Positions 3,705-33,410 are shown, counted from the first letter of the stretch. The stretch is 64,000 nucleotides of DNA from Candidatus Blackburnbacteria bacterium RIFCSPLOWO2_01_FULL_40_20 (GCA_001816475.1 MHCC01000001.1:12622-76621); one strand, 5' to 3'. Notes: a model not told the origin generated them from the sequence alone. Translations and numbers: made by a program.

Positions 3705-3735
3705 CCCGAGCTTGCGCCGGGTTTTTTCTGCGTGC
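3705..3735. terminator. bidirectional rho-independent terminator (A6-CCCGAGCTTGCGCCGGG-T6)
   Basis: GC stem flanked by an A-run on one side and a T-run on the other. It lies downstream of both the 16S rRNA (minus) and ORF 2872..3519 (plus). Confidence 0.45.
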
Positions 3736-3736
3736 C

Positions 3737-3775
3737 CCTAACGTACTCCGATCAGATCGGAGGAAGTGGGGACCT
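3737..3775. repeat. 39-bp hairpin repeat, copy 1 (GCCCCTAACGTACTCCGATCAGATCGGAGGAAGTGGGG)
   Basis: Identical 39-mer recurs at 27816..27854. Internal palindrome CTCCGATC-A-GATCGGAG is bracketed by CCCC...GGGG. Confidence 0.7.
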
Positions 3776-3950
3776 CAACACTCAAAATGTAACTGGGAAC
3801 ATTGTGATTCCGTTAGATTAGCGAGAAACGGTTTTCGTAGATCTCGGGGTGATGATTTTCCCCACATCCAAATAAATTGAATCTGGAGTTTCCAACATCT
3901 CCTTAGAAAGGAGGTGATCCATCCGCACCTTCCAGTACGGATACCTTGTT

Positions 3951-4737
3951 CATGTTCTTCCCCTATTACTAAGGGCATGGACTATATCTTCATCCGCAGA
4001 AAAATGACCTTTTCCGGATGACTGGATCCTATTGTTTTTGCAAAGTCCAAATAAGATTTTGCTCTAACAAAAAATCTCCAATAATTCGGGTCTGCTTTTT
4101 TGCTCGGATTATGCACCACTCCACAGCTTATACCCAACTTTTCTAAATAGTTTCTTACCTGAACTAGATCCTCAAATTTCTTTTGAGCAAAGTACAAGTA
4201 ATAACGAACAGTTGGACTTCTTGAAATACCACCCTCTGTGTCAAAGTAGCCTCTTGTGTAATCAACCTTATCTTGCCTTGTTTTAACTTGAATTCCTTTA
4301 AGAAGTTTCTTGGAAAATTCCACAATCCAAAGATTGCGGTTTTTCCCTTCTTTGTAAATCCAAGCTTTAGATCCAAGACTGAGAATACCTTTTGCAAGAT
4401 ATTCGCAATAAGATCGACTTTTAGAAGCCACTCGATAAGTGGTTTTTCTTTCTGTGGAATCATGCAACGCTCCAAGTAAGTAAGCTTTAGTCATCTTGCG
4501 GCGTCAACGTGTAGTCTCTACGGGGTCAAGCCCTTCGATCCGCCTTTTGGCGGACTCAGGACCGACTTCCCTCGGTATTTTCCCTTTTGTGTAATACCTC
4601 TACTAGGTTGAATTTTAGCTCAACCAACTCAAGTAAGCAAAGCTTGCTTTATGCTTCGCTTCACTACGCAAAAGTAGGAGTTCACCGATACAGTTGAATT
4701 TATCTACACCATTACTAGTGTAGGTCGCAACAGATTC
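3951..4737 (-). other. 16S intron 2 (group I-like), inserted between AAGUCGU and AACAAGGUA (E. coli ~1498/1499)
   Basis: The upstream exon ends in U (CATCAAGTCGT). The intron ends in G (..ACATG) directly before AACAAGGTATCCG. It contains a LAGLIDADG ORF. Confidence 0.6.
3982..4494 (-). CDS. LAGLIDADG homing endonuclease (intron-encoded)
   Basis: Motifs LLGALHDS and GYFDTEGG (LAGLIDADG-type dodecapeptides) in a 170-aa ORF lying wholly inside the 16S intron. Confidence 0.8.
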   Translation of the reverse strand: MTKAYLLGALHDSTERKTTYRVASKSRSYCEYLAKGILSLGSKAWIYKEGKNRNLWIVEFSKKLLKGIQVKTRQDKVDYTRGYFDTEGGISRSPTVRYYLYFAQKKFEDLVQVRNYLEKLGISCGVVHNPSKKADPNYWRFFVRAKSYLDFAKTIGSSHPEKVIFLRMKI

Positions 4738-4809
4738 ACGACTTGATGCTAGTTGCTGAACTTACCTTTGGGTCGCCGAGGGCGACACTTCAGGTACTTC
4801 CAACTCCTC

Positions 4810-5316
4810 TCATCTGACGGGCGGATTGCGATCCAATAAGGTTTTGGTCGCGTTCCCACCCGGCGAGCGGATTTCCCGCACCGGGCGAGACCCAAGATTC
4901 ATCCTAGACTTCAATTGTAGAACGAGCTTCAATCCCCTCTTGTTGTTGTGCCTTTTATCTCTAACCAAAAGTGCGATCTTGCGAAAAATTTTATAATTTT
5001 CAACTTTTACACTTTGGAGATGATGAGCGTCAAAAAAGGGTATTAAAACTTTACGTATGTCCTCCTGAGAGTTAATCTCGTATCGATAACATTGGCTGTG
5101 ATTTCGACGCTTTTCCTTTTGGTGGTATACTGCGCCACATCCAAAGAATTCCTCAACTTTCTTGAGCAAAGACAGTTCATCTTCCCTCATTTTTATATAA
5201 AAGTGAGTCATCACACCATGTTTTGAACGAGAATAACGTTTATCAGGAGGTCGGATGCCAACATAAAAACATCCTTCTCCATCCGTTAATCCTACAATGT
5301 AGTCTGGTGAAAGCAT
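4810..5316 (-). CDS. LAGLIDADG homing endonuclease (intron-encoded; reading frame runs 15 nt into the downstream exon)
   Basis: N-terminal IVGLTDGEGCFYV is a classic LAGLIDADG motif. The ORF's last five codons (NPPVR) are read from the 16S exon CCGCCCGTCAGATGA. Confidence 0.85.
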   Translation of the reverse strand: MLSPDYIVGLTDGEGCFYVGIRPPDKRYSRSKHGVMTHFYIKMREDELSLLKKVEEFFGCGAVYHQKEKRRNHSQCYRYEINSQEDIRKVLIPFFDAHHLQSVKVENYKIFRKIALLVRDKRHNNKRGLKLVLQLKSRMNLGSRPVREIRSPGGNATKTLLDRNPPVR

Positions 5317-5692
5317 AGGTAACTCCCTTTATCACCGCTGCGTCAATAATTCCAGTATATTTCACCGAAATAAAATAATCAACAGCAGTAACTAATATGG
5401 AGTAGCTGACTTCTCTTAAGGCCTTAACCTTCATCCTTAAGAGATCTCCCTAGGTCACTATCGCTTCTGTTCCAAGCATCCAAGTTATGCCACTTCCCCA
5501 AAACACACCGCTTGGGTCGATTTGGCACCCCGATATCGATCGGAGCTTGGCTGCTTTTTGCCTCAGGCCCTCCAGCTGGTATCTCACGATAACCCAGCCT
5601 GCCAATTCTTTTTGGCTACTCCTCCTCATGTTTAGAGGAGGGAGTGGATTTAAACCACTTAGGAACAATAGCTGCTAGGCGCGCTTTAATTT
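4825..5692 (-). other. 16S intron 1, inserted between TTGTACACA and CCGCCCGTCA (E. coli ~1398/1399)
   Basis: Universally conserved 16S sequence resumes exactly on either side of the insertion. Intron type not established: the boundaries do not show the canonical U / omega-G pattern in my reading. Confidence 0.55.
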
Positions 5693-6161
5693 TGTGTACA
5701 AAGAGCGAGAACGTATTCACCGCGGTATAGCTGACCCGCGATTACTACCAATTCCGCGTTCATGCAGGCGAATTTCAGCCTGCAATCCCCACTGAGACGC
5801 CTTTTGATGAGATTAGCTCCGCCTCGCGGCTTGGCAACTCATTGTAGGCGCCATTGTAGCATGTTTGTAGCCCCAGACATAAGGGCCATGCTGACTTGAC
5901 GTCGTCCCCTCCTTCCTGTCCGATAAAATCGGACCTGTCCCGTATGAATATTTAACATACAGCAGGGGTTGCGCTCGTTACCTCACTTAAGAGAACACCC
6001 CACGGCACGAGCTGACGACAGCCATGCAACACCTGTCCTAACGCTCCGGTTTGCACCGGAGGGCTCTGACTTTCATCGGAGTTTCATTAGGATGTCAAGC
6101 CTGGGTAAGGTTCTTCGGTTCGTGTCGAATTAAACAACATGCTCCACTGGTTGTGCGCTCT

Positions 6162-6210
<49 letters not shown>

Positions 6211-6254
6211 CTCGCTTAACGCGTTAGCTTGCGGAACAGATCTCGCAAAAAATA

Positions 6255-6440
6255 CAACGTATTTTTTGCTCAAAACCCAAAATACGAAATCCTAAATTCG
6301 AAACAATATCTAAATTCTAAATTCAAATAATTAAACGTTTTGAATTTTAGGATTTTTAGATTTTGAATTTGTTTCGTGCTTCGATATTCGTGCTTTGAAT
6401 TTCTCGCAAAGAATGTATTCTTTGCGAGACCTATCCCAAG
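6255..6440 (-). repeat. AT-rich ~185-nt expansion segment inside the 16S (E. coli ~840 region)
   Basis: Inserted between GTAAACTATG... and GCTAACGCGTTAAGC. Self-complementary halves (AAATCCTAAAATTCAAAACG ... CGAATTTAGGATTT) predict a long hairpin. Built from AAATTCAAAAT-like units similar to the intergenic GAAAATT iterons. Confidence 0.5.
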
Positions 6441-7560
6441 CGAGCATAGTTTACGGCTAGGACTACAGGGGTCTCTAATCCCTTTCGCTACCCTAGCTTT
6501 CGTCTCTCAGCGTCAGAATCTTTCTAGATGTTCGCCTTCGCCGTCGGTGTTCCTCGTAATATCAACGGATTTAACCCCTACACTACGAGTTCCAACATCC
6601 CCGAAAGATCTCAAAGTTCACCCGTATTCTCCGATATCCCAGAGTTAAGCTCTGGACTTTAACAGAAAACGTGGCGGACCGCCTACAGACTCTTTACGCC
6701 CAATAAATCCGGACAACGCTTGCACCCTCCGTATTACCGAGGCTTCTGGCACGGAGTTAGCAGGTGCTTATTCTACAACCTGTATGATTGTCAAAAGGAG
6801 TTTAAGACCCGAAGGCCTTCTTCCTCCACGCGGCGTCGCGGGATCAGACTTGCGTCCATTGTCCACGATTCCCAGTTGCTGCCACCCGTAGGTGTATGAG
6901 CCGTGTCTCAGTCTCATTCTGGGGGGCCGTGCTCTAACACCCCCTACCCGTTATAGCCTTGGTAGGCCGTTACCCCACCAACTAGCTGATAGGCCGCCGG
7001 CTCTTTCTTCGGTGGACCGTTAAGTCCTTTGCTCTTGCGAGATTATGCGGTATTACCCCCGCTTTCGCGGGGCTATCCCCCACCAAAGAGTAGATTCCGA
7101 CGTGTTACTCAGCCGTCTGCCGCTATCCCGACTTGCGTCGGAATCGCTCGACTTGCATGCTTAAAGCGCGCCGCTAGCGTTCGTCCTGGGCCAGGATCAA
7201 ACCCTCAAAAAAAATTGACATGATCAACTCCGATTTACATCGGAGCAACCATGGGTTCCCAGTTACATTTTGAATGTCAAAGAGCAAATTGCAACGCAAT
7301 TTACGATGCACCCACCGATAAATCTTGGCACGAGGCGTGTACGAATAGTACCCGCAAGCCGAGTGCGAAGATAAGGCGGGAAGGTACGCATGGTCTCTTT
7401 AAACCAAAAATCCACCACATGGCGGATTAAACAAGCTTTTTAGGCTTACTGGCTTACTCTTTTCCCATGTGTTTGAAAAGTATACTCGATTCCCTATCAA
7501 TAGTCAACCATCCGTTTAGTGTAAACACATATTTGCAAATACATATATAATAGTGTTGAA

Positions 7561-7953
7561 ATGGCCGAAAGAATAAAAGTTTTAACAGTAGAAAACGATA
7601 AAAGAATCGCAGAGGTAATAAAAGACATTTTAGCTTTTGAAGAAATCGAAACAGATCGTGTGACTTGGGTTAAAACAGCAGACGAAGCAATTGAGGCTTT
7701 AAAAAGCCCAGAAAAACCTTCAATAATCATATTAAATTTGGTTCTTGATAGTGGAATTGAAGAAAGTTGGCAATTTATAAGATATGTAAGGTCACCAACC
7801 TCCCCATTTCGCGATGTTCCAATACTGGTTATAACCGGCATGGACGCATCGGACGTAAAAATGACTTGCAAAACTTTGGGGGTAGAAGGATTTTTAGCCA
7901 AACCATTCGCCATTGAAGATCTCTTACAGAGTGTAAAAGAAGTATTAAAATGA
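7561..7953 (+). CDS. response regulator receiver-domain protein (CheY-like, no output domain)
   Basis: KVLTVENDKRI...D...ILNLVLDSG...ILVITGMDASD...K follows the receiver-domain D/D/T/K pattern. Overlaps the downstream kinase gene by 4 nt. Confidence 0.75.
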   Translation: MAERIKVLTVENDKRIAEVIKDILAFEEIETDRVTWVKTADEAIEALKSPEKPSIIILNLVLDSGIEESWQFIRYVRSPTSPFRDVPILVITGMDASDVKMTCKTLGVEGFLAKPFAIEDLLQSVKEVLK

Positions 7954-9137
7954 TGACTGAAGAAGAAACAGGTATCAAGACAATCCCAAAGTCTTCCACA
8001 GACTCCGCTGAACGTGAGTCCAAAGATCATTTGCGCGTGTTTGTTGCAGAAGCCGGAACCTCAGAAGTTGCGAACAGTGCATCGTTTGAGGTATTACGAA
8101 AAACCTTAGTTGCAATAAACGCGTGCGGTAGAATCTCAAGAGCATATCAAGAAAATCCTGTAAAAGACCAGTTTAGTTTATTATCGAGGACCGACGATAT
8201 TGAGACGGACTCGAGAGTATTAAGAAATATTTGTCAGCTGGCAGTTCCTTCCGACAGTACCGCTTCTGAGCTTTTGTTACAACAACAAGAAGAACGGTTT
8301 AACGAGATTGCACATCAAGAAGAGTTAAGATATGGGAGACATTTCCCTACTGAAACTGCAGCACTAATAATTCCTGACGAAAAAACTTTAAAAGAGCTAA
8401 CTCAAACACTTGCTGATTTAAGGCACGACTTGAAAAACGCAATGTGCACTCTTCTGCCAAGAGTACAAATGGCAAGACGCGGGATAAACATAGACATTGC
8501 ACTTGAAAACATAAATTACTCATTTAATAAGGTTGGAGAGCTTACAGAAAGCGCTACAAGCTTGATCGAAAAATCTTACCCAAAAGAAAAATTGTCAACT
8601 TCAGACGTCGCAGCAGCCCTTAAAGAGTGTCTGAAAAAAAATAATCCTGCAGAAAAATCTTTAAGTATTAGCGTTATCGAGTCAGAAGAATCTCAAGATT
8701 CAATAGTGATCTGGTCGCAAAGTTGGATATCGCGTCTTGCAGCAAACATTGCCCAAAACACATTAAAGGCTTACGATGCCCGTGACGAGCTATCCCCTGA
8801 AAAAGCAAAAGGCCCAAGAATTCTTTTGGCCAGTATGCGAACAACCAAAAGTGAAAACGGGGCAAGATGTTTGAGAATTGAAGTTGATAACAGAGCCATA
8901 AAAATGCCAGATGAAATAATAAAAAATGGATTCCAAAGAGGTCTCTCGTTTTGGCCAGGAAGTTCTTTGTCGGGAGAAGGAAGGGGTATGGCCTCAGACA
9001 GTAAAACTCTTCAAGAGCAATATGGAGGAACAATTAAGGCTGAAAATATTGCTAACCAAGCGGGTGAAATAATAGGGGCAAGAATTATCATTGAAGTGCC
9101 GATCGTCAAAGATGCACCTGTGGCCTACCCATATTAA
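7950..9137 (+). CDS. sensor histidine kinase (cytoplasmic; HisKA + HATPase_c)
   Basis: H-box LRHDLKNAMCTL. C-terminal G-box-like GRGMASDSKTL...GG. No transmembrane helices. Confidence 0.65.
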   Translation: MMTEEETGIKTIPKSSTDSAERESKDHLRVFVAEAGTSEVANSASFEVLRKTLVAINACGRISRAYQENPVKDQFSLLSRTDDIETDSRVLRNICQLAVPSDSTASELLLQQQEERFNEIAHQEELRYGRHFPTETAALIIPDEKTLKELTQTLADLRHDLKNAMCTLLPRVQMARRGINIDIALENINYSFNKVGELTESATSLIEKSYPKEKLSTSDVAAALKECLKKNNPAEKSLSISVIESEESQDSIVIWSQSWISRLAANIAQNTLKAYDARDELSPEKAKGPRILLASMRTTKSENGARCLRIEVDNRAIKMPDEIIKNGFQRGLSFWPGSSLSGEGRGMASDSKTLQEQYGGTIKAENIANQAGEIIGARIIIEVPIVKDAPVAYPY

Positions 9138-9755: not shown

Positions 9756-10131
9756 CTGCCACTCCTTAATTTAATGTTCTGAAAGTACCAGAGCGTGTGT
9801 CCCGATGAATCGGGGCTTTACGTTCTAAGTCCTCCAACAGTACTTTCATCACTATTATACTATGAGGCAAGAACATTTGCAACAATTTTCTTGTAGTAAG
9901 TTTACTATCAACTTACTTTATACTTACTAACAAAGAGTACATTAAATGTATGACTGAAAAATCAAGAAAAGGGGGTTATGCAAAAAGACCTCTTTGGCAA
10001 TATATACTGATGTATCTGGTCATCGGTGGAATAATCTATGTTTTGATTTACTACTTTTTAATTCGAGGAAATTATTCGCCTTCTCTACTTTCTGCCCCTG
10101 CACCAGTCCAAAACGCTCCAGGACCAAGATA

Positions 10132-16253: not shown

Positions 16254-16373
16254 ACTTTATGTATGAACTATTGGTTCGAAAATGTCAAATACAAGATCTT
16301 GTTGAATATTTGGAATGCCTTGGTAGATTTTGGGCATAAATTAGGCTATAATTAGTTACCTATACACAATTAG

Positions 16374-16444
16374 GGCCCGTAGCTCAACGGCAGAGCATCT
16401 CCCTTTTAAGGAGTTGGTTGACAGTTCGAATCTGTCCGGGCTCA
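16374..16444 (+). tRNA. tRNA-Lys(TTT)
   Basis: GGGCCCGTAGCTCAACGGCAGAGCATCTCCCTTTTAAGGAG..GACAGTTCGAATCTGTCCGGGCTCA. Anticodon loop CTTTTAA. Confidence 0.85.
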
Positions 16445-16482: not shown

Positions 16483-16583
16483 AGAAATTGTGGAAAACTC
16501 TGGGATTGTCTTGATACCTGTTTCTTCTTCAGTCATCATTTTAATACTTCTTTTACACTCTGTAAGAGATCTTCAATGGCGAA
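16483..16583. repeat. inverted duplicate (~100 bp, 2-3 mismatches) of 7898..8003, the junction of the response-regulator 3' end and histidine-kinase 5' end
   Basis: The reverse complement of 7911-7990 (ctttgggattgtcttgatacctgtttcttcttcagtcatcattttaatacttcttttacactctgtaagagatcttcaatg) occurs at 16499-16578 with a single visible mismatch. Identity fades at both ends. Confidence 0.8.
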
Positions 16584-16688
16584 TATTATTTACTTCATGC
16601 TTTTATAAAGAAAAGTCAGAAAACACCTGCCAAAGAATTAAAGGTAGCCCTTGACAGAATGAGAAAATTAGTATAGCATATATGCTAT

Positions 16689-16982
16689 ATGATTAAACCT
16701 AAAGACAGACAACATTTAGATTTTGAAGTGTGGGAAAAGGAAGCTTTAAAAGATCCTAAACTAAGAGCGGAGTATGACAAACTACAGCCACAGTTTGCTA
16801 TTCTAAGAGCAAGGATTGAAAAAAGATTAACCCAAAAAGAGTTGGCTCAAAGGATTGGGACCAAACAATCAGTTATCTCGAGACTTGAATCCGGCCGTGC
16901 TAATCCATCAGTTGCTTTTCTTAAGAAACTAGCTCAAGCCTTAAACTCTCATCTGGAAATTAGATTTACCAATTTTAAGTAA
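16689..16982 (+). CDS. XRE-family helix-turn-helix transcriptional regulator
   Basis: LTQKELAQRIGTKQSVISRLESGRANPSVAFLKKLAQAL is an XRE/Cro-type HTH. Confidence 0.7.
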   Translation: MIKPKDRQHLDFEVWEKEALKDPKLRAEYDKLQPQFAILRARIEKRLTQKELAQRIGTKQSVISRLESGRANPSVAFLKKLAQALNSHLEIRFTNFK

Positions 16983-17175
16983 TCTTGCTGTACTTTATTG
17001 TGCATTTTTTAGACCAAATGTATAGGCAAACTCAGAGTTTAGACCGTCAGCCCCGATTAAATCGGGGTCAGACAGGAATAATTCAAAGAATTCCCGCAGC
17101 TCGCCTCGCTGAAGCTCCGACGAAGCGGGTCTGTTTAAGGTACTAGGGGCTCACAGAAGCACAAGGTGTGCCAAA

Positions 17176-21893: not shown

Positions 21894-22385
21894 GTGGAAC
21901 AATTAATAGTTTTCTCTGCCAAGTACTTCTTTGCCCTTGCCCCATTTGTTGCAACTGTTTTCTTTTTCATGCTCAAAAAGAATCTCAAAATTAAATTCCT
22001 CGCGCTTTCTGCTTTATCTTTATCTTTATCTTTATCTCTTGCCAAACTCCTCAACAAGATAATTGTCGATCCTCGCCCCTTTGTTGTAAACCACATTCAA
22101 CCCCTTATTCCCCATGCACCCGACAACGGTTTCCCATCAGACCACACACTTTTGGTTGCAACAATAGCTTCAATTGTCTTTGTGTTCAACAAAAAACTTG
22201 GGATCGTTATAATGGTGTTAGCAGTAATCGTTGGATATTCTCGTGTTCTTGCACAAATCCACCACCCGCTGGATATAGCAGGAAGCGTTCTAATCGCCGT
22301 TGTGGCGACTTGGGCATCGAGACTAATATTAACGAGGCTTAATTTTAAATCTAAATTTGAAAATTCAATGAAAATTGTAAATTGA
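21894..22385 (+). CDS. PAP2-family phosphatase (undecaprenyl-diphosphatase-like)
   Basis: The three PAP2 motifs are present: DPRPF (KxxxxxxRP), FPSDHT (PSGH) and SRVLAQIHHPLD (SRxxxxxHxxxD). Contains a (TCTTTA)4-5 microsatellite encoding LSLSLSLSLS. Confidence 0.7.
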   Translation: MEQLIVFSAKYFFALAPFVATVFFFMLKKNLKIKFLALSALSLSLSLSLAKLLNKIIVDPRPFVVNHIQPLIPHAPDNGFPSDHTLLVATIASIVFVFNKKLGIVIMVLAVIVGYSRVLAQIHHPLDIAGSVLIAVVATWASRLILTRLNFKSKFENSMKIVN

Positions 22386-22387
22386 TT

Positions 22388-22410
22388 CCGATCCTATCGG
22401 AATTGAAAAT
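22388..22410. promoter_or_regulatory. palindrome GATTCCGATCCTATCGGAATTG flanked by GAAAATT heptamer repeats (copy 1 of 4)
   Basis: 7-bp arms TTCCGAT/ATCGGAA with 3-nt spacer; the same element occurs at 23186, 27410 and 30269. Confidence 0.4.
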
Positions 22411-22416
22411 TGAAAA

Positions 22417-23178
22417 TTATTTCAAGGCTGCCTCCATTAACTGCGCCACGGTTAAGGACGATACTGCTCCACTTATTACCCAAGCATTACCCCGCTCGTC
22501 AAGCAAGAAATTTGCAGGAGTCCCGTTGACTTGAGCTTCTAAACCACCATCCGAATCTTCTTTTACCTTTTGGGTAGTTGCACCACTGTCCAAACATTTC
22601 TGGAAGGCAGTTTTGTTCAAGCCTAATTCAATTGCAATTTTAGGAAGTTGGCTTGCGTCAAGTCCGTTGTTTGCTGGCGTAACCTCAAAAACTTTATCAA
22701 TGTATGACCAAAAGACATCTTCTCCGCCGAGCTGCGAAGCACACTCTGCCGCAGCTGCCTCAGGTCGAGCTTTTGAATGAAGTGAATCAAGTGGAAAATG
22801 ACGATAAACCCAACGCACCTTTCCATCGTAATCAGCAAGCATTTTTTGCAAGACCGGGTGCATTTGCTTGCAAAACGGACATTCAAGATCTGAGTACTCA
22901 ATCCAAGTTAACTTTGCGTCTTTTGAGCCTTTAATGTGATCTTTGTTGGTAATTGGCGGAAGATTTAGTGTATCTGCCTTAATCGGAGAAGGAATAGATG
23001 GCCGCGCAGGTGGATTTGCGGCGTTTGCACCTGCAACATCCCCACCGTTCTTGTTTTCAAGGTATTGTACGCGCTGCCAAAGAACACCCAAGAAAAAAGT
23101 GCCAACCAAAACACCTGCTATTCCAACTGGTATGAGTATGCTTTTAACAGTATTATTCATATACGATTTAATTTTCAA
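22417..23178 (-). CDS. membrane-anchored DsbA-like thiol:disulfide oxidoreductase
   Basis: N-terminal TM helix, thioredoxin-fold CPFC active site (LECPFCKQMHP). Confidence 0.7.
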   Translation of the reverse strand: MKIKSYMNNTVKSILIPVGIAGVLVGTFFLGVLWQRVQYLENKNGGDVAGANAANPPARPSIPSPIKADTLNLPPITNKDHIKGSKDAKLTWIEYSDLECPFCKQMHPVLQKMLADYDGKVRWVYRHFPLDSLHSKARPEAAAAECASQLGGEDVFWSYIDKVFEVTPANNGLDASQLPKIAIELGLNKTAFQKCLDSGATTQKVKEDSDGGLEAQVNGTPANFLLDERGNAWVISGAVSSLTVAQLMEAALK

Positions 23179-23185
23179 TTTTCAA

Positions 23186-23210
23186 TTCCGATCCTATCGG
23201 AATCAATAAC
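23186..23210. promoter_or_regulatory. palindrome AATTCCGATCCTATCGGAATC with flanking (C)AATTTTC iterons (copy 2)
   Basis: Lies in the trxB-dsbA intergenic region. Heptamer units attttcaattttcaatt on one side and tgaaaattgaaaattgtaaattgaaaatt on the other. Confidence 0.4.
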
Positions 23211-23304
23211 CAATTTACAATGAATTTTCAAATTCTAATTTTCAAACTGTTTGGAACTTGATAATTGGGATTTGATTGAAAATTGAAAATTGTAAATTGA
23301 AAAT

Positions 23305-24300
23305 TTATTTGTGTTCCATTAACCACTTCTCAACGTCTAAGGCTGCCATGCAACCAAAAGCAGCCGCCGTCACCGCCTGTTTGTAGTGGTAATCGTGAAC
23401 ATCTCCTGCAGCAAAAACCCCCTCAACGCTTGTCTTTGTACGATCAAAAACTTTGATATACCCTTTCTCGTCCAAATCAATTTCACCTTTGAAAATATTT
23501 GTTGCTGGAGTATGGCCTATCGCAACAAATATACCATCAATTGGAAACTCTACAACTTCTTTCGTTTTATTGTCCCTTATTTTTACCCCTACTACCCTTA
23601 CTTCCCCTATCACATCCACTATCTCACGGTTTAATAACAGCTTAATTTTTGGGTCTTTTGAGACCTTTTCTTGCATTATTTTTGAAGCCCTAAATTCATC
23701 TCGTCTGTGAACTATTGCTACTTCGGCGGCAAACCTTGATAAGACCAATGCCTCCTCCATTGCAGAGTCTCCACCCCCAATAACAATAATGTTTTTATCC
23801 CTAAAAAATGGGGCATCGCAAGGAGCGCAAGAAGATACACCGCGACCTATCAACTTTTGCTCGTTGGGCAACCCAAGCCATGTGGTTTGGGCACCAGTTG
23901 CAATAATTACAGACCTTGCTTTGTATTCTTTGTTTCCAGCCCATGCAGAAAACTCGCCAACATTCTTAAAAGCAACTTTCTCAACGTCTTCAAGTACAAT
24001 TATTGCGCCAAACCTTTCTGCTTGTTTGCGTATCTTGTCCATGAGCTTTGGCCCCATGATTCCCTCAGGAAACCCTGGGAAATTTTCAACTTCAGTTGTC
24101 AACATCAATTGCCCACCCCAAGAAGTACCTCCAATAACGACAGTAGAAAGAGCGGCTCGCGTTGTATAAATAGCAGAAGTTAACCCCGCGGGTCCCGATC
24201 CAATGATCAAAACATCAAAGACTTCGCCAGACCCACGAGTCATACTTGACCCATTAGACATACTCATCTCAAGTTTGCCCTCCAGTTTGTTCCCCTTCAT
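23305..24300 (-). CDS. trxB: thioredoxin-disulfide reductase
   Basis: FAD-binding IIGSGPAG, redox-active CAPCD and NADPH-binding IGGGDSAMEEA motifs. Confidence 0.85.
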   Translation of the reverse strand: MKGNKLEGKLEMSMSNGSSMTRGSGEVFDVLIIGSGPAGLTSAIYTTRAALSTVVIGGTSWGGQLMLTTEVENFPGFPEGIMGPKLMDKIRKQAERFGAIIVLEDVEKVAFKNVGEFSAWAGNKEYKARSVIIATGAQTTWLGLPNEQKLIGRGVSSCAPCDAPFFRDKNIIVIGGGDSAMEEALVLSRFAAEVAIVHRRDEFRASKIMQEKVSKDPKIKLLLNREIVDVIGEVRVVGVKIRDNKTKEVVEFPIDGIFVAIGHTPATNIFKGEIDLDEKGYIKVFDRTKTSVEGVFAAGDVHDYHYKQAVTAAAFGCMAALDVEKWLMEHK

Positions 24301-24520
24301 TTGGCACTGTTGGATTAGCAGCCGGTTGCTCTGCAGGTGCTTGCCCTAAACCGCTCTGGTTCGGGGTAGCGGATGATGTCGGTTGAGTCACCGCTGGTGC
24401 AGATGGTATCTCAGTAATTGACGACACAGCAGGTTGTGCTGGTTGTGCTGGTTGTGCAGGTTGAGGCTGCGCAGCTGGTGCTTGTCCTGGGTTTACTGGT
24501 TGTTGATCTTGTGGATTCAT
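24269..24520 (-). CDS. low-complexity Pro/Gln/Ala-rich ORF overlapping the trxB start (doubtful)
   Basis: Encoded by a 9-bp tandem repeat GGTTGTGCT x3 (PAQPAQPAQ); GC-rich; different frame from trxB. Confidence 0.2.
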   Translation of the reverse strand: MNPQDQQPVNPGQAPAAQPQPAQPAQPAQPAVSSITEIPSAPAVTQPTSSATPNQSGLGQAPAEQPAANPTVPNEGEQTGGQT

Positions 24521-24674
24521 TAAAACATATCACCCCCTAACTCACGAAATTTGAAATTTTAAATTTTAAATTTGAATTCAATTTGAAAATCACAATTTTA
24601 AATGTTTAAAAATTGAAAATTGAGATTTTGGATTTCATTGAAAATTTTAAATTGAAAATTGAAAATTGCAAAAG

Positions 24675-24992
24675 CTACGCTTTTGCTAAAAGGTCTTCAA
24701 ATGGTTTTCTTCCTCCGAATCCGATTTGTCGCCCTACTTCTTTTCCGTCTTTGAATAAAATTGTTGTGGGAATAGACATAACTTGGAGGGCTTGTGCGCT
24801 TGCAGGATTTTTATCTACATCAATTTTAACAAAATCTATCTGGCCTTCATATTCTTTTGAGAGCTCCTCAAGAATGGGCCCTGCGAGTCGGCAAGGCCCG
24901 CACCAAACAGCATGCAAATCCACAAGCACCGGGGTCTTGTTTTCCGTCACTTTTTGCCTAAAATCTTGGTCTGTTACGTCAATTAAAGCCAT
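24675..24992 (-). CDS. trxA: thioredoxin
   Basis: WCGPC active site, 105 aa. Confidence 0.85.
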   Translation of the reverse strand: MALIDVTDQDFRQKVTENKTPVLVDLHAVWCGPCRLAGPILEELSKEYEGQIDFVKIDVDKNPASAQALQVMSIPTTILFKDGKEVGRQIGFGGRKPFEDLLAKA

Positions 24993-25094
24993 CGCTCTTT
25001 ACTGCTCGTCTAGCCTATCACAAAAGGGGGGATTGGAGTCAAGTAGTGTTTTCACGGATGCAATTTTCCAACACGCCAAAAAGAGGAAATTCCC

Positions 25095-27344
25095 TTACTT
25101 CCCTAATCCAACCCTTTTCAACAACAATGAATTTGAAACAACTGAAACTGAAGACATTGCCATGGCAGCTGAGGCAAAGATGGGGCTAAGCAGTATTTTT
25201 GCGAACGGATATAAGGCACCCATCGCCACAGGAATCAAAATAACGTTATATCCAAACGCCCAAATCAAGTTCATCCGAATTGTTCTCATTGTTTTCCGTG
25301 ACAGTTCAATCGCCCGCGCAACAGAGCGCAAATCTTTGTTAACCAAGGTTATACTTGCTGCCTCAATTGCCACATCCGTTCCCGTTCCCATTGCAATCCC
25401 GATGTCAGCTGCCGCCAGCGCCGGTGCGTCGTTTATCCCGTCCCCCACCATTGCAACAACTTTCCTCTCGGCTTGAATTTTCCTAACTTCTGCTTCTTTC
25501 CCGTCCGGCAAAACTTCCGCTAAAACACGTTTAATCCCAACTTGCCCGGCAATAGCCTCAGCCGTCCTTTCGTTGTCTCCGGTTATCATCACAACTTCAA
25601 TTCCCATTTTTTGCAAAGCTGCAACACCTTCTTTCGCGCTATCCTTAATTTGATCTGCAACCGCAATTAATCCTGTCAATTCCCCGCCAACTCCAAGCAT
25701 CATAACTGTCTTTCCTTCCCGCTCAATTTTTACCAATCCCATTTCCTCTTCCTTCTCTATCTTTATCTTCTCTCTTTGCATTAGTTTTATATTTCCCAAT
25801 ACAACCCGTACGCCTCCAATCTCTCCTACGACCCCGAACCCCGCTATCGCCTTAAACCCTTCGACTCCGCTCAGAACAAGCCCTTCTTCCTCTGCCTTTT
25901 TGACAATAGCCTCGGCCAGCGAGTGCTCCGAACCCTTCTCCAAAGACGCTGCCATTTTCAAAACATACCCCTTATCTCCCTTAGCCTTAATTCCCACCAC
26001 ATCTGTTACCTCTGGTTTTCCTCGCGTTAAAGTTCCTGTCTTGTCAAAAATAACAGTATTGATTTTGAGTGCAGTCTCCAGACTCTCTGCGTCTTTTATC
26101 AAAATCCCGTTTTCTGCTCCCTTACCTGTTCCAACCATAATTGCAGTTGGCGTTGCCAGCCCCATTGCGCAAGGGCAAGCGATAATCAACACGGCAATCG
26201 CGTTTAGCATTGCAAAAAGAAAAGTAGGTGAAGGACCGAAGTTGTACCAAACAACAAAAGTTAAGATAGAAAGCATAATAACAACAGGAACGAAATATGA
26301 AGAAACTGAATCAACCAACTTTTGTATCGGTGCTTTGCTTGCTTGAGCATCAGCAACAAGCTTAATAATTTGAGCAAGCATAGTTTCCTGTCCAACTTTT
26401 GAGGCCTTAAAGGTAAATGTACCGGTCTTGTTAAGCGTCGCCCCAATCACAACATCGCCTTTTGTCTTGTCAATTGGCAGGCTTTCACCCGTTACCATAG
26501 ACTCATCTATCGAGGATTCTCCATCTTCAATAATCCCGTCCGTTGGTATCTTCTCTCCTGGCCGCACGCGAACAATGTCGCCCGCCACTACTTGCCCGAT
26601 AGGCACATCCATTTCTTTACCACTCTTTAAAACTCTGGCAGTTTTGGCTTGTAATCCAATAAGTTTTTTGATGGCCTCCGAAGTCCCTGCCTTTGCACGA
26701 GCTTCAAAATACCTGCCCAACAAAATTAAACCAATCACAACGGTTGAAACGTCAAAATATGGCATAACTTCAAAACCTGCTCTTTCTAAAAATTGTGGGA
26801 AAAGTGTTGCAACAACAGAAAATGAATAAGCAGCAGTCGTGCCAATGGCAATGAGTGTATCCATATTGGCAGTCCTGTGGCGAAGTGCGGGGATAGTGCC
26901 CTTGTAAAACTGTAACCCTGGCCAAAATTGAACAATGGTGGCCATTACGAGTTGAAAATAAAAGTCCTTCAAAAACAAAGGCGCTGTGTCCACCAAAACC
27001 GGAAAGCTTCCCCAAACAATCAATCCAGCAAATACTAAACTGACAATCACATCGCGAAGAAGCCTGCGAAGCTCTCTGGACTTTTCCTCTTTATCTTTAT
27101 CTTTATCTGCCTCCATCTCTGTCTCTTGCTTTATCCCATACCCAATATTCGATACCGCTGAAAAAATTTGCTCATCCGTTGTCTTTTGGGGGTCAAACGC
27201 TACTGTTGCCCGTTCTGTAACTAAGCTAACCTGGGCCGAGAATACTCCATCCACCTTCTCCAAAGCCTTTTCAATAAGCCTCACACAAGATGCACAATGC
27301 ATTCCTTTGACGGAATAAGTTCGATTAATTAGTTTTTTCTCCAT
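25095..27344 (-). CDS. copA: copper-translocating P1B-type ATPase
   Basis: N-terminal HMA domain GMHCASC, CPC transmembrane motif, DKTGTLT phosphorylation site, GDGINDAP hinge. Contains a CTTTAT hexamer repeat encoding DKDKDKEEK. Confidence 0.9.
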
Positions 27345-27409
27345 GTTTTGATTGTTCTAACAGGCTCAATTTTTAATTTGAAATTTTAAACATTAAAAAT
27401 TTATATTTC

Positions 27410-27432
27410 ATTGAAAATTGATTCCGATAGGA
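27410..27432. promoter_or_regulatory. palindrome GATTCCGATAGGATCGGAATTG with GAAAATT flanks, upstream of copA (copy 3; loop inverted relative to copies 1-2)
   Basis: Same 7-bp arms with the spacer AGG instead of CCT. Confidence 0.4.
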
Positions 27433-27445
27433 TCGGAATTGAAAA

Positions 27446-27805
27446 TTATTTTACTATTATCTTCCCCCGGTACATATTCATGCCGCATGAATATGTATAT
27501 TCGCCCGTCTTTTGAGGATTTATTTCAACAGTAACCTTTTCACCCAAGGGCAAATCGCGCTTTATCTTAAAATCTCCTAAAACAACTTCGCTCAAACAAT
27601 CATTTTCATCCTTGCGAGTAAAGTTAATTATTGTAGTCTTGCCACGAGGAACGGTAATAATGTTTGGTGTATATCCACCATCTACTGTTATGTCAACAGA
27701 TCCGGAAGCCTTGACTTCTTTTTCCTTTTTGCCAAGGAAAAACCAATAAACAAACCCAATTCCCATAACGCCAATAATGGTAACGACTAATTTATCAATA
27801 CTCAT
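27446..27805 (-). CDS. cupredoxin-like domain protein (membrane-anchored)
   Basis: N-terminal TM helix. C-terminal EYTYSCGMNMYRGKIIV resembles the Cys/Met metal-binding motif of cupredoxin_1-type domains. The same motif type is at the C-terminus of ORF 29243..30253. Confidence 0.55.
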   Translation of the reverse strand: MSIDKLVVTIIGVMGIGFVYWFFLGKKEKEVKASGSVDITVDGGYTPNIITVPRGKTTIINFTRKDENDCLSEVVLGDFKIKRDLPLGEKVTVEINPQKTGEYTYSCGMNMYRGKIIVK

Positions 27806-27815
27806 AATCTCCTTG

Positions 27816-27854
27816 CCCCTAACGTACTCCGATCAGATCGGAGGAAGTGGGGTA
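27816..27854. repeat. 39-bp hairpin repeat, copy 2 (identical to 3737..3775)
   Basis: Overlaps the stop codon of the small ORF 27847..27996. On the minus strand it ends GGGGCAAGGAGATTATG, supplying the Shine-Dalgarno sequence and ATG of the cupredoxin gene. Confidence 0.7.
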
Positions 27855-27996
27855 TCTATTTCTTGTTTATCTGCTTCCACAAATAAACTGACAAAAGAAT
27901 AAGGGTTATTATCACCAGAATCCAAACCAAGGATCCAAGGAATGCAAAAAGCCCAAACCCTCCTCCCCAGTTCATCATGTTTCCCCAATTTCCATA
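27847..27996 (-). CDS. 49-aa Gly/Trp/Met-rich small membrane protein (not in supplied ORF track)
   Basis: My translation of the minus strand: MMGYGNWGNMMNWGGGFGLFAFLGSLVWILVIITLILLSVYLWKQINKK. Sits immediately downstream of csoR. The supplied ORF 27833..28051 is a different frame. Confidence 0.45.
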
Positions 27997-28013
27997 TCCC
28001 ATCATATTGTCTC

Positions 28014-28301
28014 TCACCCCACTTTCTTGAATATCTCAACCATCTCATCAATTACTTCTTCCCTGCCTTTTTTAACTGCGTCAGTTGTGCAAGTTTTAAG
28101 GTGATTTTCTAAAATTAAATTATCAACTCCACGAAGTGCTTTTTGGACTGCTTGTGATTGGTGAAGTACGTCAACACAATACTCCCCCTCACCAACCATT
28201 TTTATAACCTTATTAAGATGTCCCCGGACGATTTTAAGTCGGTGCAATATTGTCCTTTTTACGGACGGGTCTCGCGGAATTCCTCTTGGCATGTTTTTCA
28301 T
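28014..28301 (-). CDS. csoR: CsoR/RcnR-family metal-sensing transcriptional repressor
   Basis: RLKIVRGHLNKVIKMV...EYCVDVLHQSQAVQKAL...H...C carries the Cys-His-Cys sensing triad. The probable true start is the second Met (MPRGIP). Confidence 0.8.
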   Translation of the reverse strand: MKNMPRGIPRDPSVKRTILHRLKIVRGHLNKVIKMVGEGEYCVDVLHQSQAVQKALRGVDNLILENHLKTCTTDAVKKGREEVIDEMVEIFKKVG

Positions 28302-28316
28302 CCCCTAGAGGGGGAT
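28300..28316. promoter_or_regulatory. candidate CsoR operator: perfect palindrome ATCCCC-TAGAG-GGGGAT abutting the csoR start
   Basis: 6-bp inverted arms separated by 5 nt. A GGGG/CCCC-containing inverted repeat is the general architecture of CsoR operators. A matching ATCCCC-N5-GGGGG site precedes the second csoR gene. Confidence 0.4.
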
Positions 28317-28589
28317 TAAGTAATTATACCATTAAAGACAAGAAAATCAATATTATTGTCATCCTGAGGAATGAAACGACGAAGGATCTCTCGCAAATGC
28401 GAGATGAAATATATGCTAAACAACTACCAAGTAGAGCAGAGATTCCTCCTCCGCCGAGCGAGATCGGAACGACGAGGGATATATGAAAAAAACTTGGGGT
28501 AGGCCGAAATATTTGCTTCTAGCAAAATACTCCGGACTACCCCGAACGAAGTTTAGAACGTGGTCCCGATCAAATCGGGGCTTTACGTT

Positions 28590-28838
28590 CTAGGTCAGCG
28601 ACAGCTGTCGCGAACGCCCTCGCGGCGGGTCATGCCGACTCTCAGGAAGCTGCTGCATTGCTTCCTGTCGTTTTGTTGTTTGGGCACATTCTTGCTCTTT
28701 AAGGACTCCGCGAAGGTCGTCGACCAACTTCTCTTCATTCTTGAACGAAAGCTCGGTTACTCGCTCAACCCCCGCTTTGTCAAGATGCCATTGTATGACT
28801 CTCGTCACATTCTCAATGATATCTCTTCTCAAGAACAA
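28590..28838 (-). CDS. hypothetical protein in GC-rich insert
   Basis: 82-aa ORF inside the ~670-bp high-GC block 28560-29230. The plus-strand ORFs here look like wrong-frame artefacts (Cys/Arg-rich). Confidence 0.3.
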   Translation of the reverse strand: MFLRRDIIENVTRVIQWHLDKAGVERVTELSFKNEEKLVDDLRGVLKEQECAQTTKRQEAMQQLPESRHDPPRGRSRQLSLT

Positions 28839-28862
28839 GCCACACCTCCTTTTTTTTGCAGA

Positions 28863-29219
28863 CTACTTCAGAACGTCAGCCAAATCGTGTGCCATCTCCA
28901 CTTTTTGCAGCGGACAAAGGTCGACCGGGCGCACTGTAGCAATGCAACGATTCCGTGCCTCACGATCCAAGTGCGACTGGATGACCTCGATCGCCTCGCG
29001 TGTCTTGTCCGAAACTGCCGGTGCGACTGGCGCAGCAGGCTCGGGCGGAGCAGCGACAGCGTGCAACACCTGATCCTGCCATCTGATCCCCCCACGGGGT
29101 TTGGTAACCGCAACCTTTTCCCGTGCCTTCTCGAGAACCGCTGTTGGTGACACTTTCTCCTCCTCGCGCGAAATATTTGGTTTATTAAAGATCCCTAGAC
29201 CTAACCCAGAGTATAGCAA
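28863..29219 (-). CDS. hypothetical protein in GC-rich insert (Pro/Ala-rich linker)
   Basis: 118-aa ORF with a protein-like composition, unlike the overlapping plus-strand frames. Confidence 0.35.
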   Translation of the reverse strand: MLYSGLGLGIFNKPNISREEEKVSPTAVLEKAREKVAVTKPRGGIRWQDQVLHAVAAPPEPAAPVAPAVSDKTREAIEVIQSHLDREARNRCIATVRPVDLCPLQKVEMAHDLADVLK

Positions 29220-29242
29220 GTTAGACCAAAAAAGTAAAATTT

Positions 29243-30253
29243 ATGGTAAAATTAAAGTTCATGGAATCCTTCTGGCTTGCCTTCCTTACCGGTCTTACAA
29301 CAGGCGGGTTTTCCTGCCTTGCCGTGCAAGGCGGGCTTTTAGCCTCAGCAATCTCCGGAAAAGAAACACAATCAAAACAAATTGTAGGATTGTTTTTGAT
29401 TGCAAAAATTATTGCCTATACCTTTTTGGGGGCTGGATTGGGACTTGTCGGATCTGCCTTGACCATTTCCGCTCAAACCCAAGGCTGGATGCAAATTTTT
29501 GCCGGAGTGTTTATGTTGTTAACTGCAGCAAGACTTCTAGACATCCATCCAATTTTTAGATATTTCGTTATCCAACCCCCACGCTTTGTATATAAATTTT
29601 TACGCAAAACCAGCAAAAGTGATGCATATTTCACGCCATTACTGCTCGGGTCGCTTACTGTTCTTATCCCCTGTGGAATCACCCAAGGCATGATGATTCT
29701 TGCAGTTTCATCTGGTAATCCTGTTACGGGCGCTTTAATAATGTTTTCATTTATCCTTGGTACTAGCCCAGTTTTCTTTGCCTTGGGCATTGCCACATCA
29801 CAACTTTTAAAAAGAAAGATCTTTGCGATTTTTACAGCTGGTGTAATTGCCATACTTGGTGCAATGGCTATAAACAGTGGCCAGGTTTTGCGGGGTTCAA
29901 TTTACACTTTTCAAAACTTCTATAAAGCTGCAACAACTGACGTGTATGGATCCGGGGGCAGTGTTGCCGGTGTAAACGCAGAAGGAAAACAAGAAGTTAC
30001 AATTGATGTTTTGAACAACGGATACAATTCCTCAAGCGATGTCTTAAAAGCTGGCGTTCCAGTAAAACTAAGCCTAGTAACAAACGGCACAAGAAGTTGT
30101 ACCCGCGCATTTACAATCCCAGCCTTGGGTGTTTCAAAAGTACTCCCGCAAACAGGTAGCGAAACAGTCGAATTTACGCCAGCAAAGGCGGGATCCTTGG
30201 CTTATTCTTGCGGGATGGGAATGTATGGAGGAACATTCCAGGTGATAAATTAA
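29243..30253 (+). CDS. polytopic membrane protein with Cys-containing TM motifs fused to a C-terminal cupredoxin-like domain (putative metal transporter)
   Basis: TM1 GLTTGGFSCLAVQGG and a later LIPCGITQG motif. C-terminal soluble domain ends SLAYSCGMGMYGGTFQV, paralleling SCGMNMYRGKI of ORF 27446..27805. Confidence 0.6.
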   Translation: MVKLKFMESFWLAFLTGLTTGGFSCLAVQGGLLASAISGKETQSKQIVGLFLIAKIIAYTFLGAGLGLVGSALTISAQTQGWMQIFAGVFMLLTAARLLDIHPIFRYFVIQPPRFVYKFLRKTSKSDAYFTPLLLGSLTVLIPCGITQGMMILAVSSGNPVTGALIMFSFILGTSPVFFALGIATSQLLKRKIFAIFTAGVIAILGAMAINSGQVLRGSIYTFQNFYKAATTDVYGSGGSVAGVNAEGKQEVTIDVLNNGYNSSSDVLKAGVPVKLSLVTNGTRSCTRAFTIPALGVSKVLPQTGSETVEFTPAKAGSLAYSCGMGMYGGTFQVIN

Positions 30254-30268
30254 CCCAATTTTCAATTT

Positions 30269-30292
30269 TTAATTCCGATAGGATCGGAATTG
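30269..30292. promoter_or_regulatory. palindrome AATTCCGATAGGATCGGAATTG with AATTTTC/GAAAATT flanks, upstream of copZ (copy 4)
   Basis: Identical arms to copies 1-3. Confidence 0.4.
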
Positions 30293-30325
30293 AAAATTTC
30301 AAATTTGTTATAGATCAACAAAAGC

Positions 30326-30577
30326 ATGAACAACGGTCAAGATAATAAACCAAAAGTACTCAGATTTTCCATCAAGGGTATGCATTGTCCGTCTTGCGCC
30401 ATATTAATCGAAAGCGATCTGGAAGACGCGGGTGTCAAAGTTTCTTGTAGTTACGCAAAACAACTCCTAGAAGTTGAGACCCCCTTTCGCTCGCAAGCTT
30501 CGGAGGGGCAAGCAGAAACAGAAAAAACTGTTAAGAAAGTTGTTGAAGATTTGGGATATAAGATAGAGGCTTTGTAA
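30326..30577 (+). CDS. copZ: heavy-metal-associated domain copper chaperone (CopZ-like)
   Basis: GMHCPSCA metal-binding motif in an ~80-aa ferredoxin-like ORF. Confidence 0.8.
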   Translation: MNNGQDNKPKVLRFSIKGMHCPSCAILIESDLEDAGVKVSCSYAKQLLEVETPFRSQASEGQAETEKTVKKVVEDLGYKIEAL

Positions 30578-33387: not shown

Positions 33388-33410
33388 CCCCTACCCCCTG
33401 ATGGGGATAT
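33388..33410. promoter_or_regulatory. candidate CsoR operator ATCCCC-ATCAG-GGGGTA (minus sense) immediately upstream of csoR2
   Basis: Same ATCCCC-N5-GGGGG architecture as the site at 28300. On the minus strand GGGGTAGGGGT then supplies the RBS before ATG. Confidence 0.35.

Follow-up and report, generated by a model that had tools for sequence, protein, structure and literature searches.

Palindromic repeats nested in AT-rich heptamer modules of a copper/thiol-redox cluster in Candidatus Blackburnbacteria

Introduction

A 64,000-nt stretch of the genome of Candidatus Blackburnbacteria bacterium RIFCSPLOWO2_01_FULL_40_20 (GCA_001816475.1, MHCC01000001.1:12622-76621; hereafter the window) contains a copper/thiol-redox gene cluster whose spacers carry four copies of the palindrome TTCCGAT-N3-ATCGGAA, embedded in runs of GAAAATT heptamers. 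The host belongs to the Microgenomates within the candidate phyla radiation (CPR) and is represented by metagenome-assembled genomes from the Rifle aquifer. CPR genomes are tiny, dense and usually thought to be repeat-poor, and here the spacers of a rearranged copper/thiol cluster hold a nested repeat system. The original prediction, made from the sequence alone, proposed that the position and symmetry of the palindromes fit either a site for a dimeric DNA-binding protein or a small mobile palindromic element. The locus therefore raises the question of what these palindromes are.

Our analysis indicates that they are probably small (17-21 nt) palindromic repeats nested in register within lineage-specific, dispersed, slippage-prone AT-rich heptamer-hairpin modules, which would be non-coding filler. 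The mobile-element half of the proposal is thus retained in a broader form, as a dispersed and strain-variable family, and a dimeric protein site appears unlikely. We favour the repeat interpretation because homologous modules occur outside the copper cluster (in helices H25 and H45 of the 23S rRNA, in the 16S rRNA gene and in the S1-dnaB and rho-lysM spacers), because the modules vary between nearly identical strains, because the homologous operons of other CPR bacteria are compact and free of the elements, and because the operators of CsoR are accounted for by other sequences. The folding of entire spacers into long hairpins, the excess of palindromes and of CCGAT stems, the flipping of loops apart from their flanks and the lack of a consistent promoter geometry point the same way. 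The DNA sampled comprised the window and its flanks from the same genome, ~90 kb in total of a genome of roughly 1 Mb. Gene context in the window was taken from Pfam and JGI gene calls, and strains were compared on seven contigs of the same species that are ~99.8% or more identical.

Four identical palindromes in intergenic spacers

The window contains four exact matches to TTCCGATNNNATCGGAA (0.00 in 100 dinucleotide shuffles), and all four 17-mers are intergenic, in the gene context originally described. Copy 1 (17-mer 22386-22402, block 22384-22404; GATT-CCGAT-CCT-ATCGG-AATT) occupies the 31-nt gap between the convergent stops of the PAP2 (22385) and DsbA-like (22417) genes. Copy 2 (17-mer 23186-23202, block 23184-23204; AATT-CCGAT-CCT-ATCGG-AATC) lies in the trxB-dsbA spacer, 26 nt 5′ of the dsbA ATG (23160). 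Copy 3 (17-mer 27422-27438, block 27420-27440; GATT-CCGAT-AGG-ATCGG-AATT) is found between the cupredoxin stop (27446) and the copA ATG (27344), and copy 4 (17-mer 30273-30289, block 30271-30291; AATT-CCGAT-AGG-ATCGG-AATT) between the DsbD-cupredoxin stop (30253) and the copZ ATG (30326), 37 nt 5′ of the latter. The first two positions had been predicted to within 2 nt (22388 and 23186), and the other two (27410 and 30269) had been placed too low by 12 and 4 nt.

Each copy forms part of a 21-nt block, [G/A]ATT-CCGAT-NNN-ATCGG-AAT[T/C], that is in register with the flanking GAAAATT/AATTTTC heptamers (for example, gaaaatt gtaaatt [gattccg atcctat cggaatt] gaaaatt gaaaatt). As predicted, runs of these heptamers are present at every copy and the loop is CCT in two copies and AGG in two. 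The 7-bp arms are identical, as had been noted, and conservation extends to arms of 8 nt (ATTCCGAT/ATCGGAAT).

The palindrome had also been described as occurring in both orientations, and here we find that the loop flips and not the entire element. A pair of 73-nt inverted repeats (85% identity), one around copy 1 (22347-22419) and the other around copy 2 (23169-23241), brackets the dsbA-like gene, and the unit around copy 3 shares 62 nt with them at 81%. When the flanks are aligned in one orientation, copy 1 reads CCT and copies 2 and 3 read AGG. Because copy 1 and the reverse-complemented copy 2 have matching flank orientation and opposite loops, the loop must have been inverted independently of the flanks. 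Small inversions of this kind are known to occur in hairpins, and the palindrome loop can invert while its flanks stay in place.

The small hairpins are predicted to fold at −8 to −18 kcal/mol. In copy 4, inverted heptamers on either side lengthen the hairpin to ~16 contiguous bp (−17.7 kcal/mol, z −4.5). We agree with the original prediction that these are not simple terminators: the 7-8 bp stems hold only 3 G:C pairs, they are followed by UUGAAAAUU or AAUCAAUUUU and not by a U-tract, and they have no consistent orientation to transcription. The sole terminator-like call among the copies falls on the non-coding strand of copy 3.

A search of 185,579 species genomes for the exact 17-mer returned 82 single hits in unrelated taxa, which is the chance level (~70 expected by estimate), with no hit in Nostocaceae and no genome holding several copies. 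A metagenome scan with the 19-mer returned the locus itself and six chance matches only. Among viral contigs, the four-copy palindrome (family A) gave 13 chance matches lacking heptamer flanks, and the two related hairpin families described below (B and C) gave none.

Heptamer modules of the cluster

Heptamer arrays are almost confined, within the window, to 22.3-30.3 kb. The module with copy 1 (22347-22419, plus strand) is the left arm of the 73-nt inverted repeat, and its array enters the last codons of the PAP2 gene. The trxB-dsbA spacer (23163-23309) consists of inverted AATTTTC/GAAAATT arrays that are predicted to pair into a long AU-rich hairpin, from which copy 2 branches off to the side. 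Copies 3 and 4 lie in modules at 27365-27447 and 30253-30308. A further module (24546-24686) lacks the palindrome. It separates an 83-amino-acid (aa) open reading frame (ORF) from the thioredoxin gene, shows 76.7% self-complementarity over 120 nt and ends in a hairpin of 8 bp with a 3-nt loop, GCAAAAGC-TAC-GCTTTTGC (24668-24686).

Entire spacers are imperfect long palindromes built from inverted heptamer arrays, for which folds of −25 to −30 kcal/mol (z −2.6 to −3.0) are predicted at the RNA level. Over all spacers and modules, the predicted RNA folding ranges from −25 to −41 kcal/mol (z −2.6 to −6.4), and perfect palindromes with 7-bp arms and 3-nt loops number 38, against 5.8 expected. A promoter scan found 21 promoter-like matches inside the arrays, compared with 16.2 in shuffled sequences; these matches are mostly antisense to the genes, and their frequency is not above the shuffled level. 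In the mechanism we propose, a module is a set of GAAAATT heptamers whose inverted arrays would pair into long hairpins, and its transcripts would form AU-rich stem-loops, each accompanied by a short G+C-containing hairpin that lies next to it or inside it.

Related modules in rRNA genes and other spacers

The same modules are found outside the copper cluster. In the 23S rRNA gene, heptamer arrays occupy H25 (model position 583/584) and H45 (about 1218/1219) and are bracketed by hairpins with 7-bp stems and 3-nt loops (CUUGUNC-NNN-GNACAAG and CUCGCNC-NNN-GNGCGAG). The H25 module aligns with the copper-cluster spacer at 24562-24667 (78.7% over 108 nt, E 4e-16) and also matches 23212-23305. All modules have in common the array-start signature TTCAWTG(AAAATTG)n, and because its TTCAWTG portion is not itself heptamer sequence we consider the modules homologous and not just alike in composition. 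The 16S rRNA gene carries an ORF-less, AU-rich insertion of 153 nt with degenerate heptamers (6249-6401, minus strand), which is 70-73% identical over ~134 nt to a third module in the 23S gene and has on either side an 8-nt direct repeat, TTGCGAGA, that looks like a target-site duplication. Among protein-gene spacers, the rho-lysM module is ~88% identical over ~80 nt to the trxB-dsbA spacer (within about 23215-23300) and has no palindrome, and the S1-dnaB spacer of strain L119 carries a module of 119 nt. We propose that the modules are scattered through the Candidatus Blackburnbacteria genome, in intergenic spacers and in tolerant rRNA helices, having spread to unlinked sites by a copy-and-paste or recombination route.

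Intervening sequences (IVSs) of 23S rRNA occur at helices 9, 25 and 45 and are excised by RNase III (PMC4990558), and CPR bacteria are reported to carry short insertions without ORFs at those sites (PMC11270868). The rRNA modules at H25 and H45 have the form of IVSs, an extended stem-loop that replaces the loop of the helix. The four palindromes differ in lying in mRNA spacers and not in rRNA. By analogy with the 23S IVSs, RNase III probably cuts the modules on transcripts, or else they serve as hairpins for processing or stabilisation between cistrons. To our knowledge, IVSs have not been described, in the literature searched, as members of a repeat family that also populates the spacers of protein genes. 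If confirmed genome-wide, this would mean that short CPR rRNA insertions originate from dispersed genomic hairpin repeats and are not rRNA-specific elements.

Variation between strains and compact operons of relatives

Comparison of the strains revealed presence/absence differences in the modules. Relative to the window, strain L088 lacks 28 nt at 23175-23202, corresponding to the 21-nt palindrome block of copy 2 plus one heptamer, and separately lacks a single heptamer at 24649-24655 (7 nt). At the S1-dnaB spacer, the 119-nt module of L119 is replaced in three other contigs by TAA-AAAATTTTCA-ATG only (a 10-nt spacer); three single-nucleotide polymorphisms (SNPs) in the adjoining 20 nt suggest an imported tract. 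Array length thus differs by single heptamers, consistent with replication slippage, and entire modules, as well as the palindrome block, are present or absent between near-identical strains. A 9-nt coding repeat in the 83-aa ORF (GGTTGTGCT, 3.6 copies, 24432-24463) has one unit fewer in strain L086, which gives the cluster slippage polymorphism of a second kind.

Apparent deletions of 100-200 nt in GCA_000993655.1 (L084), which would have included copy 2 and a family B copy, were set aside as scaffold artefacts because they lie within coding sequence and one is a run of N. In L105, gaps of N fall exactly on heptamer arrays. With scaffold gaps positioned exactly on the arrays in two public contigs, the arrays evidently break assemblies.

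In related CPR bacteria of various phyla (about 70% CopA identity), the copper operon is a compact csoR-cupredoxin-copA-dsbD/cupredoxin-copZ array whose genes overlap or nearly abut (gaps of 0-50 nt), and these operons contain no CCGAT hairpin and no heptamer array. The closest database matches outside the species are 71% identical for CopA and, on a 2-kb contig, 66% identical for S1. The cluster in the window is rearranged and expanded by comparison. Its Pfam/JGI-supported genes are PAP2 (21894-22385, plus), DsbA-like (22417-23160, minus), TrxB (23305-24300, minus), thioredoxin (24675-24992, minus), CopA (25095-27344, minus), cupredoxin (27446-27805, minus), CsoR (csoR1; 28014-28301, minus), DsbD-cupredoxin (29243-30253, plus) and CopZ-like (30326-30577, plus). 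The modules may uncouple the cistrons of this copper/thiol cluster, whose counterpart in relatives is a tight operon.

A module lies at almost every junction of the expanded cluster, and the modules could in principle be the borders of gene cassettes that were shuffled into it, with the 73-nt inverted repeats (85%) around the dsbA-like gene as the ends of a mobilised dsbA unit. We find this highly improbable: no integrase or transposase is nearby, attC-type core sites are lacking, none of the seven contigs has dsbA inverted or absent, and the same modules sit in rRNA helices where no cassette is involved. The integron attC site in particular is a poor match, since the spacers contain no R''/R' cores (RYYYAAC/GTTRRRY), there is no integrase, and the genes are on both strands.

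A 72-aa ORF between csoR and the cupredoxin gene (27833-28051, minus strand), with a glycine-rich N-terminus and one hydrophobic helix (MMGYGNWGNMMNWGGGFGLFAFLGSLVWILVIITLILLSVYLWKQINKK, hand translation), is not found in the compact copper operons of relatives. The ~940 nt between csoR and DsbD-cupredoxin (28302-29242) are relatively G+C-rich, contain no Pfam-supported gene, and include strong local hairpins, among them a family C copy (z about −3), with no Rfam match at E≤1.

An operator role, possible but unlikely

Several observations weigh against the view of the palindromes as repeats within dispersed filler modules. The strain indels may be gains or losses, and the 28-nt indel, which shows 5 nt of microhomology (TCAAT), fits a slippage deletion as well as an insertion. 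Neither a transposase nor a RAYT gene is found in the window and its gene-called flanks. All four TTCCGAT copies fall within 7.9 kb of the ~90 kb sampled (P ~0.007 under random placement), and the modules elsewhere (rRNA genes, S1-dnaB, rho-lysM) have no TTCCGAT palindrome. The 16 arm positions are identical in 4/4 copies while the flanks differ by 15-25%, a combination that suggests gene conversion, selection on sequence or spread in the very recent past. The start codons of dsbA, copA and copZ each have a copy 26-94 nt upstream.

Some of these features would be expected of an operator, at which a dimeric transcription factor binds the 8-3-8 palindrome ATTCCGAT-N3-ATCGGAAT and co-regulates the copper/thiol-redox genes, with the heptamer arrays as weak promoter elements. 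The half-site geometry suits helix-turn-helix dimers, to which loop orientation would be irrelevant, and TTGATT-17-GAAAAT spans the palindrome in one orientation, such that in copies 2 and 4 a TTGATT/TTTAAT-17-GAAAAT arrangement faces the downstream gene. In copies 1 and 3, however, the same promoter-like arrangement is antisense, and copy 1 lies between convergent 3′ ends. Transcripts carry a CCU loop at one site and an AGG loop at others, and with one copy separating convergent 3′ ends there is no consistent promoter-proximal geometry. Strain L088, of the same species, is without copy 2 and otherwise unchanged; the homologous operons of other CPR bacteria have no counterpart; the CCGAT stem recurs in rRNA trailers, IVS-bearing regions and native rRNA helices; and no candidate regulator was identified. 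We consider an operator distinctly unlikely, and keep it at that low level and no lower on account of the four copies within 7.9 kb and of the identical arms with diverging flanks.

The regulators proposed as binders have palindromes of their own. Published CsoR operators are G-tract pseudopalindromes of the ATATACCCCTNAGGGGTATAT type (PMC3902906), and C-tract/G-tract pseudopalindromes matching this type are found at both csoR genes. One candidate (28302-28314, minus strand; CCCCTAGAGGGGG) directly follows the csoR1 promoter-like sequence TTGATT-16-TATAAT, and the other (33394-33406, minus strand; CCCCCTGATGGGG) follows TTGACA-17-TATGAT upstream of csoR2. A third C4/G4 box is located at 29088-29099. 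The TTCCGAT palindrome resembles CsoR operators in being a palindromic DNA site within a copper-resistance cluster but has neither the C4/G4 tracts nor the TAC/GTA dyad. The palindromes are thus not CsoR operators, and the suggestion that the CsoR paralogues bind them is not supported. The same applies to the XRE regulator, whose gene has a different upstream palindrome, TATAGCATATATGCTATA. Symmetry alone is a poor ground for annotating regulator sites in metal-resistance clusters. At the XRE gene itself, strain L087 (~99.8% identical overall) has a dense SNP patch and a 12-nt insertion over the promoter and start (16625-16740), which looks like a recombination tract.

A hairpin stem shared by repeats and rRNA helices

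The core CCGATNNNATCGG occurs at nine sites in the window (3748, 5920, 17053, 22388, 23188, 27424, 27829, 28566 and 30275), against 0.03 expected, in agreement with the original count and with its statement that other repeat families share the core. A census of hairpin stems over 82.6 kb extends this to 16 YCCGAT-N(2-5)-ATCGGR hairpins, and CCGAT is the most frequent 5-bp hairpin stem (16 occurrences; the shuffle maximum for any stem is 8, always AT-rich). These 16 hairpins form four groups, consisting of family A (4), family B (2), family C (3 close copies and 1 distant) and those in or next to rRNA.

Family B is a 38-nt sequence, GCCCCTAACGTACTCCGATCAGATCGGAGGAAGTGGGG, found on the minus strand at two sites. 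One copy (3734-3771) is in the 16S 3′ trailer, between an arm of a long-range stem (3778-3800, which pairs with 7255-7277) and an intrinsic terminator (~3705-3733). The other copy (27815-27852) is identical over 38 nt and lies directly 5′ of the cupredoxin ribosome-binding site, and the transcript orientation is alike at both sites. Family C is represented at 28555-28591 (AGAACGTGGTC-CCGAT-CAA-ATCGG-GGCTTTACGTTCT), at 9790-9826 (core CCGAT-GA-ATCGG) and in the 23S region at about window position −6492, with one transcript orientation at all three close copies. A distant family C-like hairpin (17041-17075; CCCCGAT-TAA-ATCGGGG) lies between the convergent XRE gene and a 157-aa ORF.

Families B and C keep a constant transcript orientation, and the hairpins may have been selected as RNA elements. 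They would then be retained, in the manner of REP/BIME elements and not as neutral filler, because they stabilise mRNA between cistrons, are processed by RNases or terminate transcription weakly in both directions. Every copy lies between cistrons or at a 3′ end, in runs of genes that point the same way, both the small hairpins and the entire spacers are predicted to be stable, and the same type of module is found at the RNase III-processed IVS sites of 23S rRNA (PMC4990558, PMC11270868). Against this, the family A hairpins have no U-tract, and the genome does have a canonical terminator at another site (about 3705-3733), their transcript loop varies between CCU and AGG, the modules are dispensable between strains, and relatives express the same genes without any spacer. 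We regard selection of this kind as unlikely, and favour repeats nested in filler modules.

Besides families A, B and C, the YCCGAT hairpin is found in the leader and the trailer of 16S and in the native helices h40 of 16S and H9 of 23S rRNA. The hairpin at 5918-5934 (minus strand; GUCCGAU-UUU-AUCGGAC) is h40 itself; the core site at 5920 aligns as this native helix, which rules it out as an inserted repeat. The native H9 hairpin is GUCCGAU-UAAC-AUCGGAC (about 12047-12064 of contig L101). These two native rRNA hairpins thus have one and the same 7-bp stem, GUCCGAU/AUCGGAC, which is also the stem of the dispersed hairpin families. Conceivably, though we think it unlikely, the YCCGAT-loop-ATCGGR hairpin serves for recognition by a lineage-specific activity, either an RNA-processing factor or a hairpin-targeting recombinase, which together with the heptamer modules would move or convert short structured cassettes between rRNA helices and mRNA spacers. 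If so, CPR rRNA intervening sequences would be one face of a genome-wide mobile hairpin system.

The rRNA genes show further interruptions. The 16S gene (3907-7212, minus strand) is interrupted, with Rfam aligning 5643-7212 but only 16 nt where the helix 44 region of the model has 106 positions; the true 16S 3′ end (GGATCACCTCCTTTCT) is near 3907. The insertion of ~1.7 kb encodes two LAGLIDADG homing endonuclease ORFs (3982-4494 and 4810-5316), and the 23-nt long-range stem (3778-3800 with 7255-7277) brackets the entire 16S gene. In the 23S gene to the left of the window (11911-17200 of L101), the helix that comes after H9 holds an insertion of 114 nt and three LAGLIDADG ORFs lie further 3′; the 5S gene (17687-17833 of L101) comes next.

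Comparison with known repeat systems

The closest likeness is to the repeats of filamentous cyanobacteria. Vioque (1997) reportedly described STRR heptamer tandem repeats in heterocyst-forming cyanobacteria, and Elhai et al. (2008) are said to have defined the SDR elements of Nostocaceae as dispersed 21-27 nt sequences, hairpin-forming in SDR4-6, with many copies per genome. SDRs nest in tandem heptamer repeats or in miniature inverted-repeat transposable elements (MITEs), and cyanobacterial heptamer arrays are also found inside the gene for RNase P RNA. In the Blackburnbacteria genome, too, 7-nt repeats fill spacers and form hairpins, and arrays occur within stable RNA genes (RNase P RNA in cyanobacteria; 23S and 16S rRNA here). 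As in SDRs, the block is a dispersed hairpin; it measures 21 nt, its stem has 8 bp and its loop 3 nt, and 4/4 copies are nested in register in GAAAATT arrays. The sequences are unrelated to the Nostocaceae families, however, and number four copies in ~90 kb, copy number is possibly low, and the phylum is a different one (CPR, Microgenomates). Cyanobacterial 7-nt tandem repeats occupy intergenic spacers and form hairpins between genes (PMC2670836), and SDRs have been reported only in Nostocaceae (PMC5861425). A Nostoc SDR/STRR element was ruled out, as the 17-mer is at chance level across species genomes and the host is Candidatus Blackburnbacteria. Within the literature searched, nested repeats of this sort are new for this phylum, although the kind itself is known. 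If the link were confirmed genome-wide, it would show that this lineage and the filamentous cyanobacteria, with their heptamer/SDR system, have converged.

REP/BIME elements and REPINs with RAYT transposases (PMC3116915) offer a second comparison. Like REP elements, the palindromes are short and extragenic, are located between cistrons or at 3′ ends, belong to several families that share a stem and may act as mRNA hairpins. In place of a GTAG-like 5′ tetranucleotide, their flanks are AATT/GATT heptamer sequence. The inverted doublets within about 100 nt that characterise REPINs are also lacking, as copies are 800-4200 nt apart and copies 1 and 2 bracket an entire gene. A further difference is that our palindromes are embedded in heptamer arrays, with no RAYT gene in the window or the annotated flanks. 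By sequence, the palindromes fall outside the REP families.

Additional features of the window

For a plasmid origin, PLSDB gave no match to the 20-32 kb part of the window. At E≤1, Rfam gave nothing in 27300-30400, and in the whole window rRNA and tRNA families only. The genes dnaN and dnaA are on the minus strand at 50096-52816, and from their position the replication origin is probably at ~52.8-53.7 kb, with the entire repeat-bearing region to one side. A 96-nt inverted repeat (98%) joins 7905-8000 and 16489-16584, the latter copy duplicating the junction at which a response-regulator gene ends and a histidine-kinase gene starts. Given the tRNA gene (16373-16444) that lies 45 nt ahead of it, this copy may be a scar left by rearrangement or integration.

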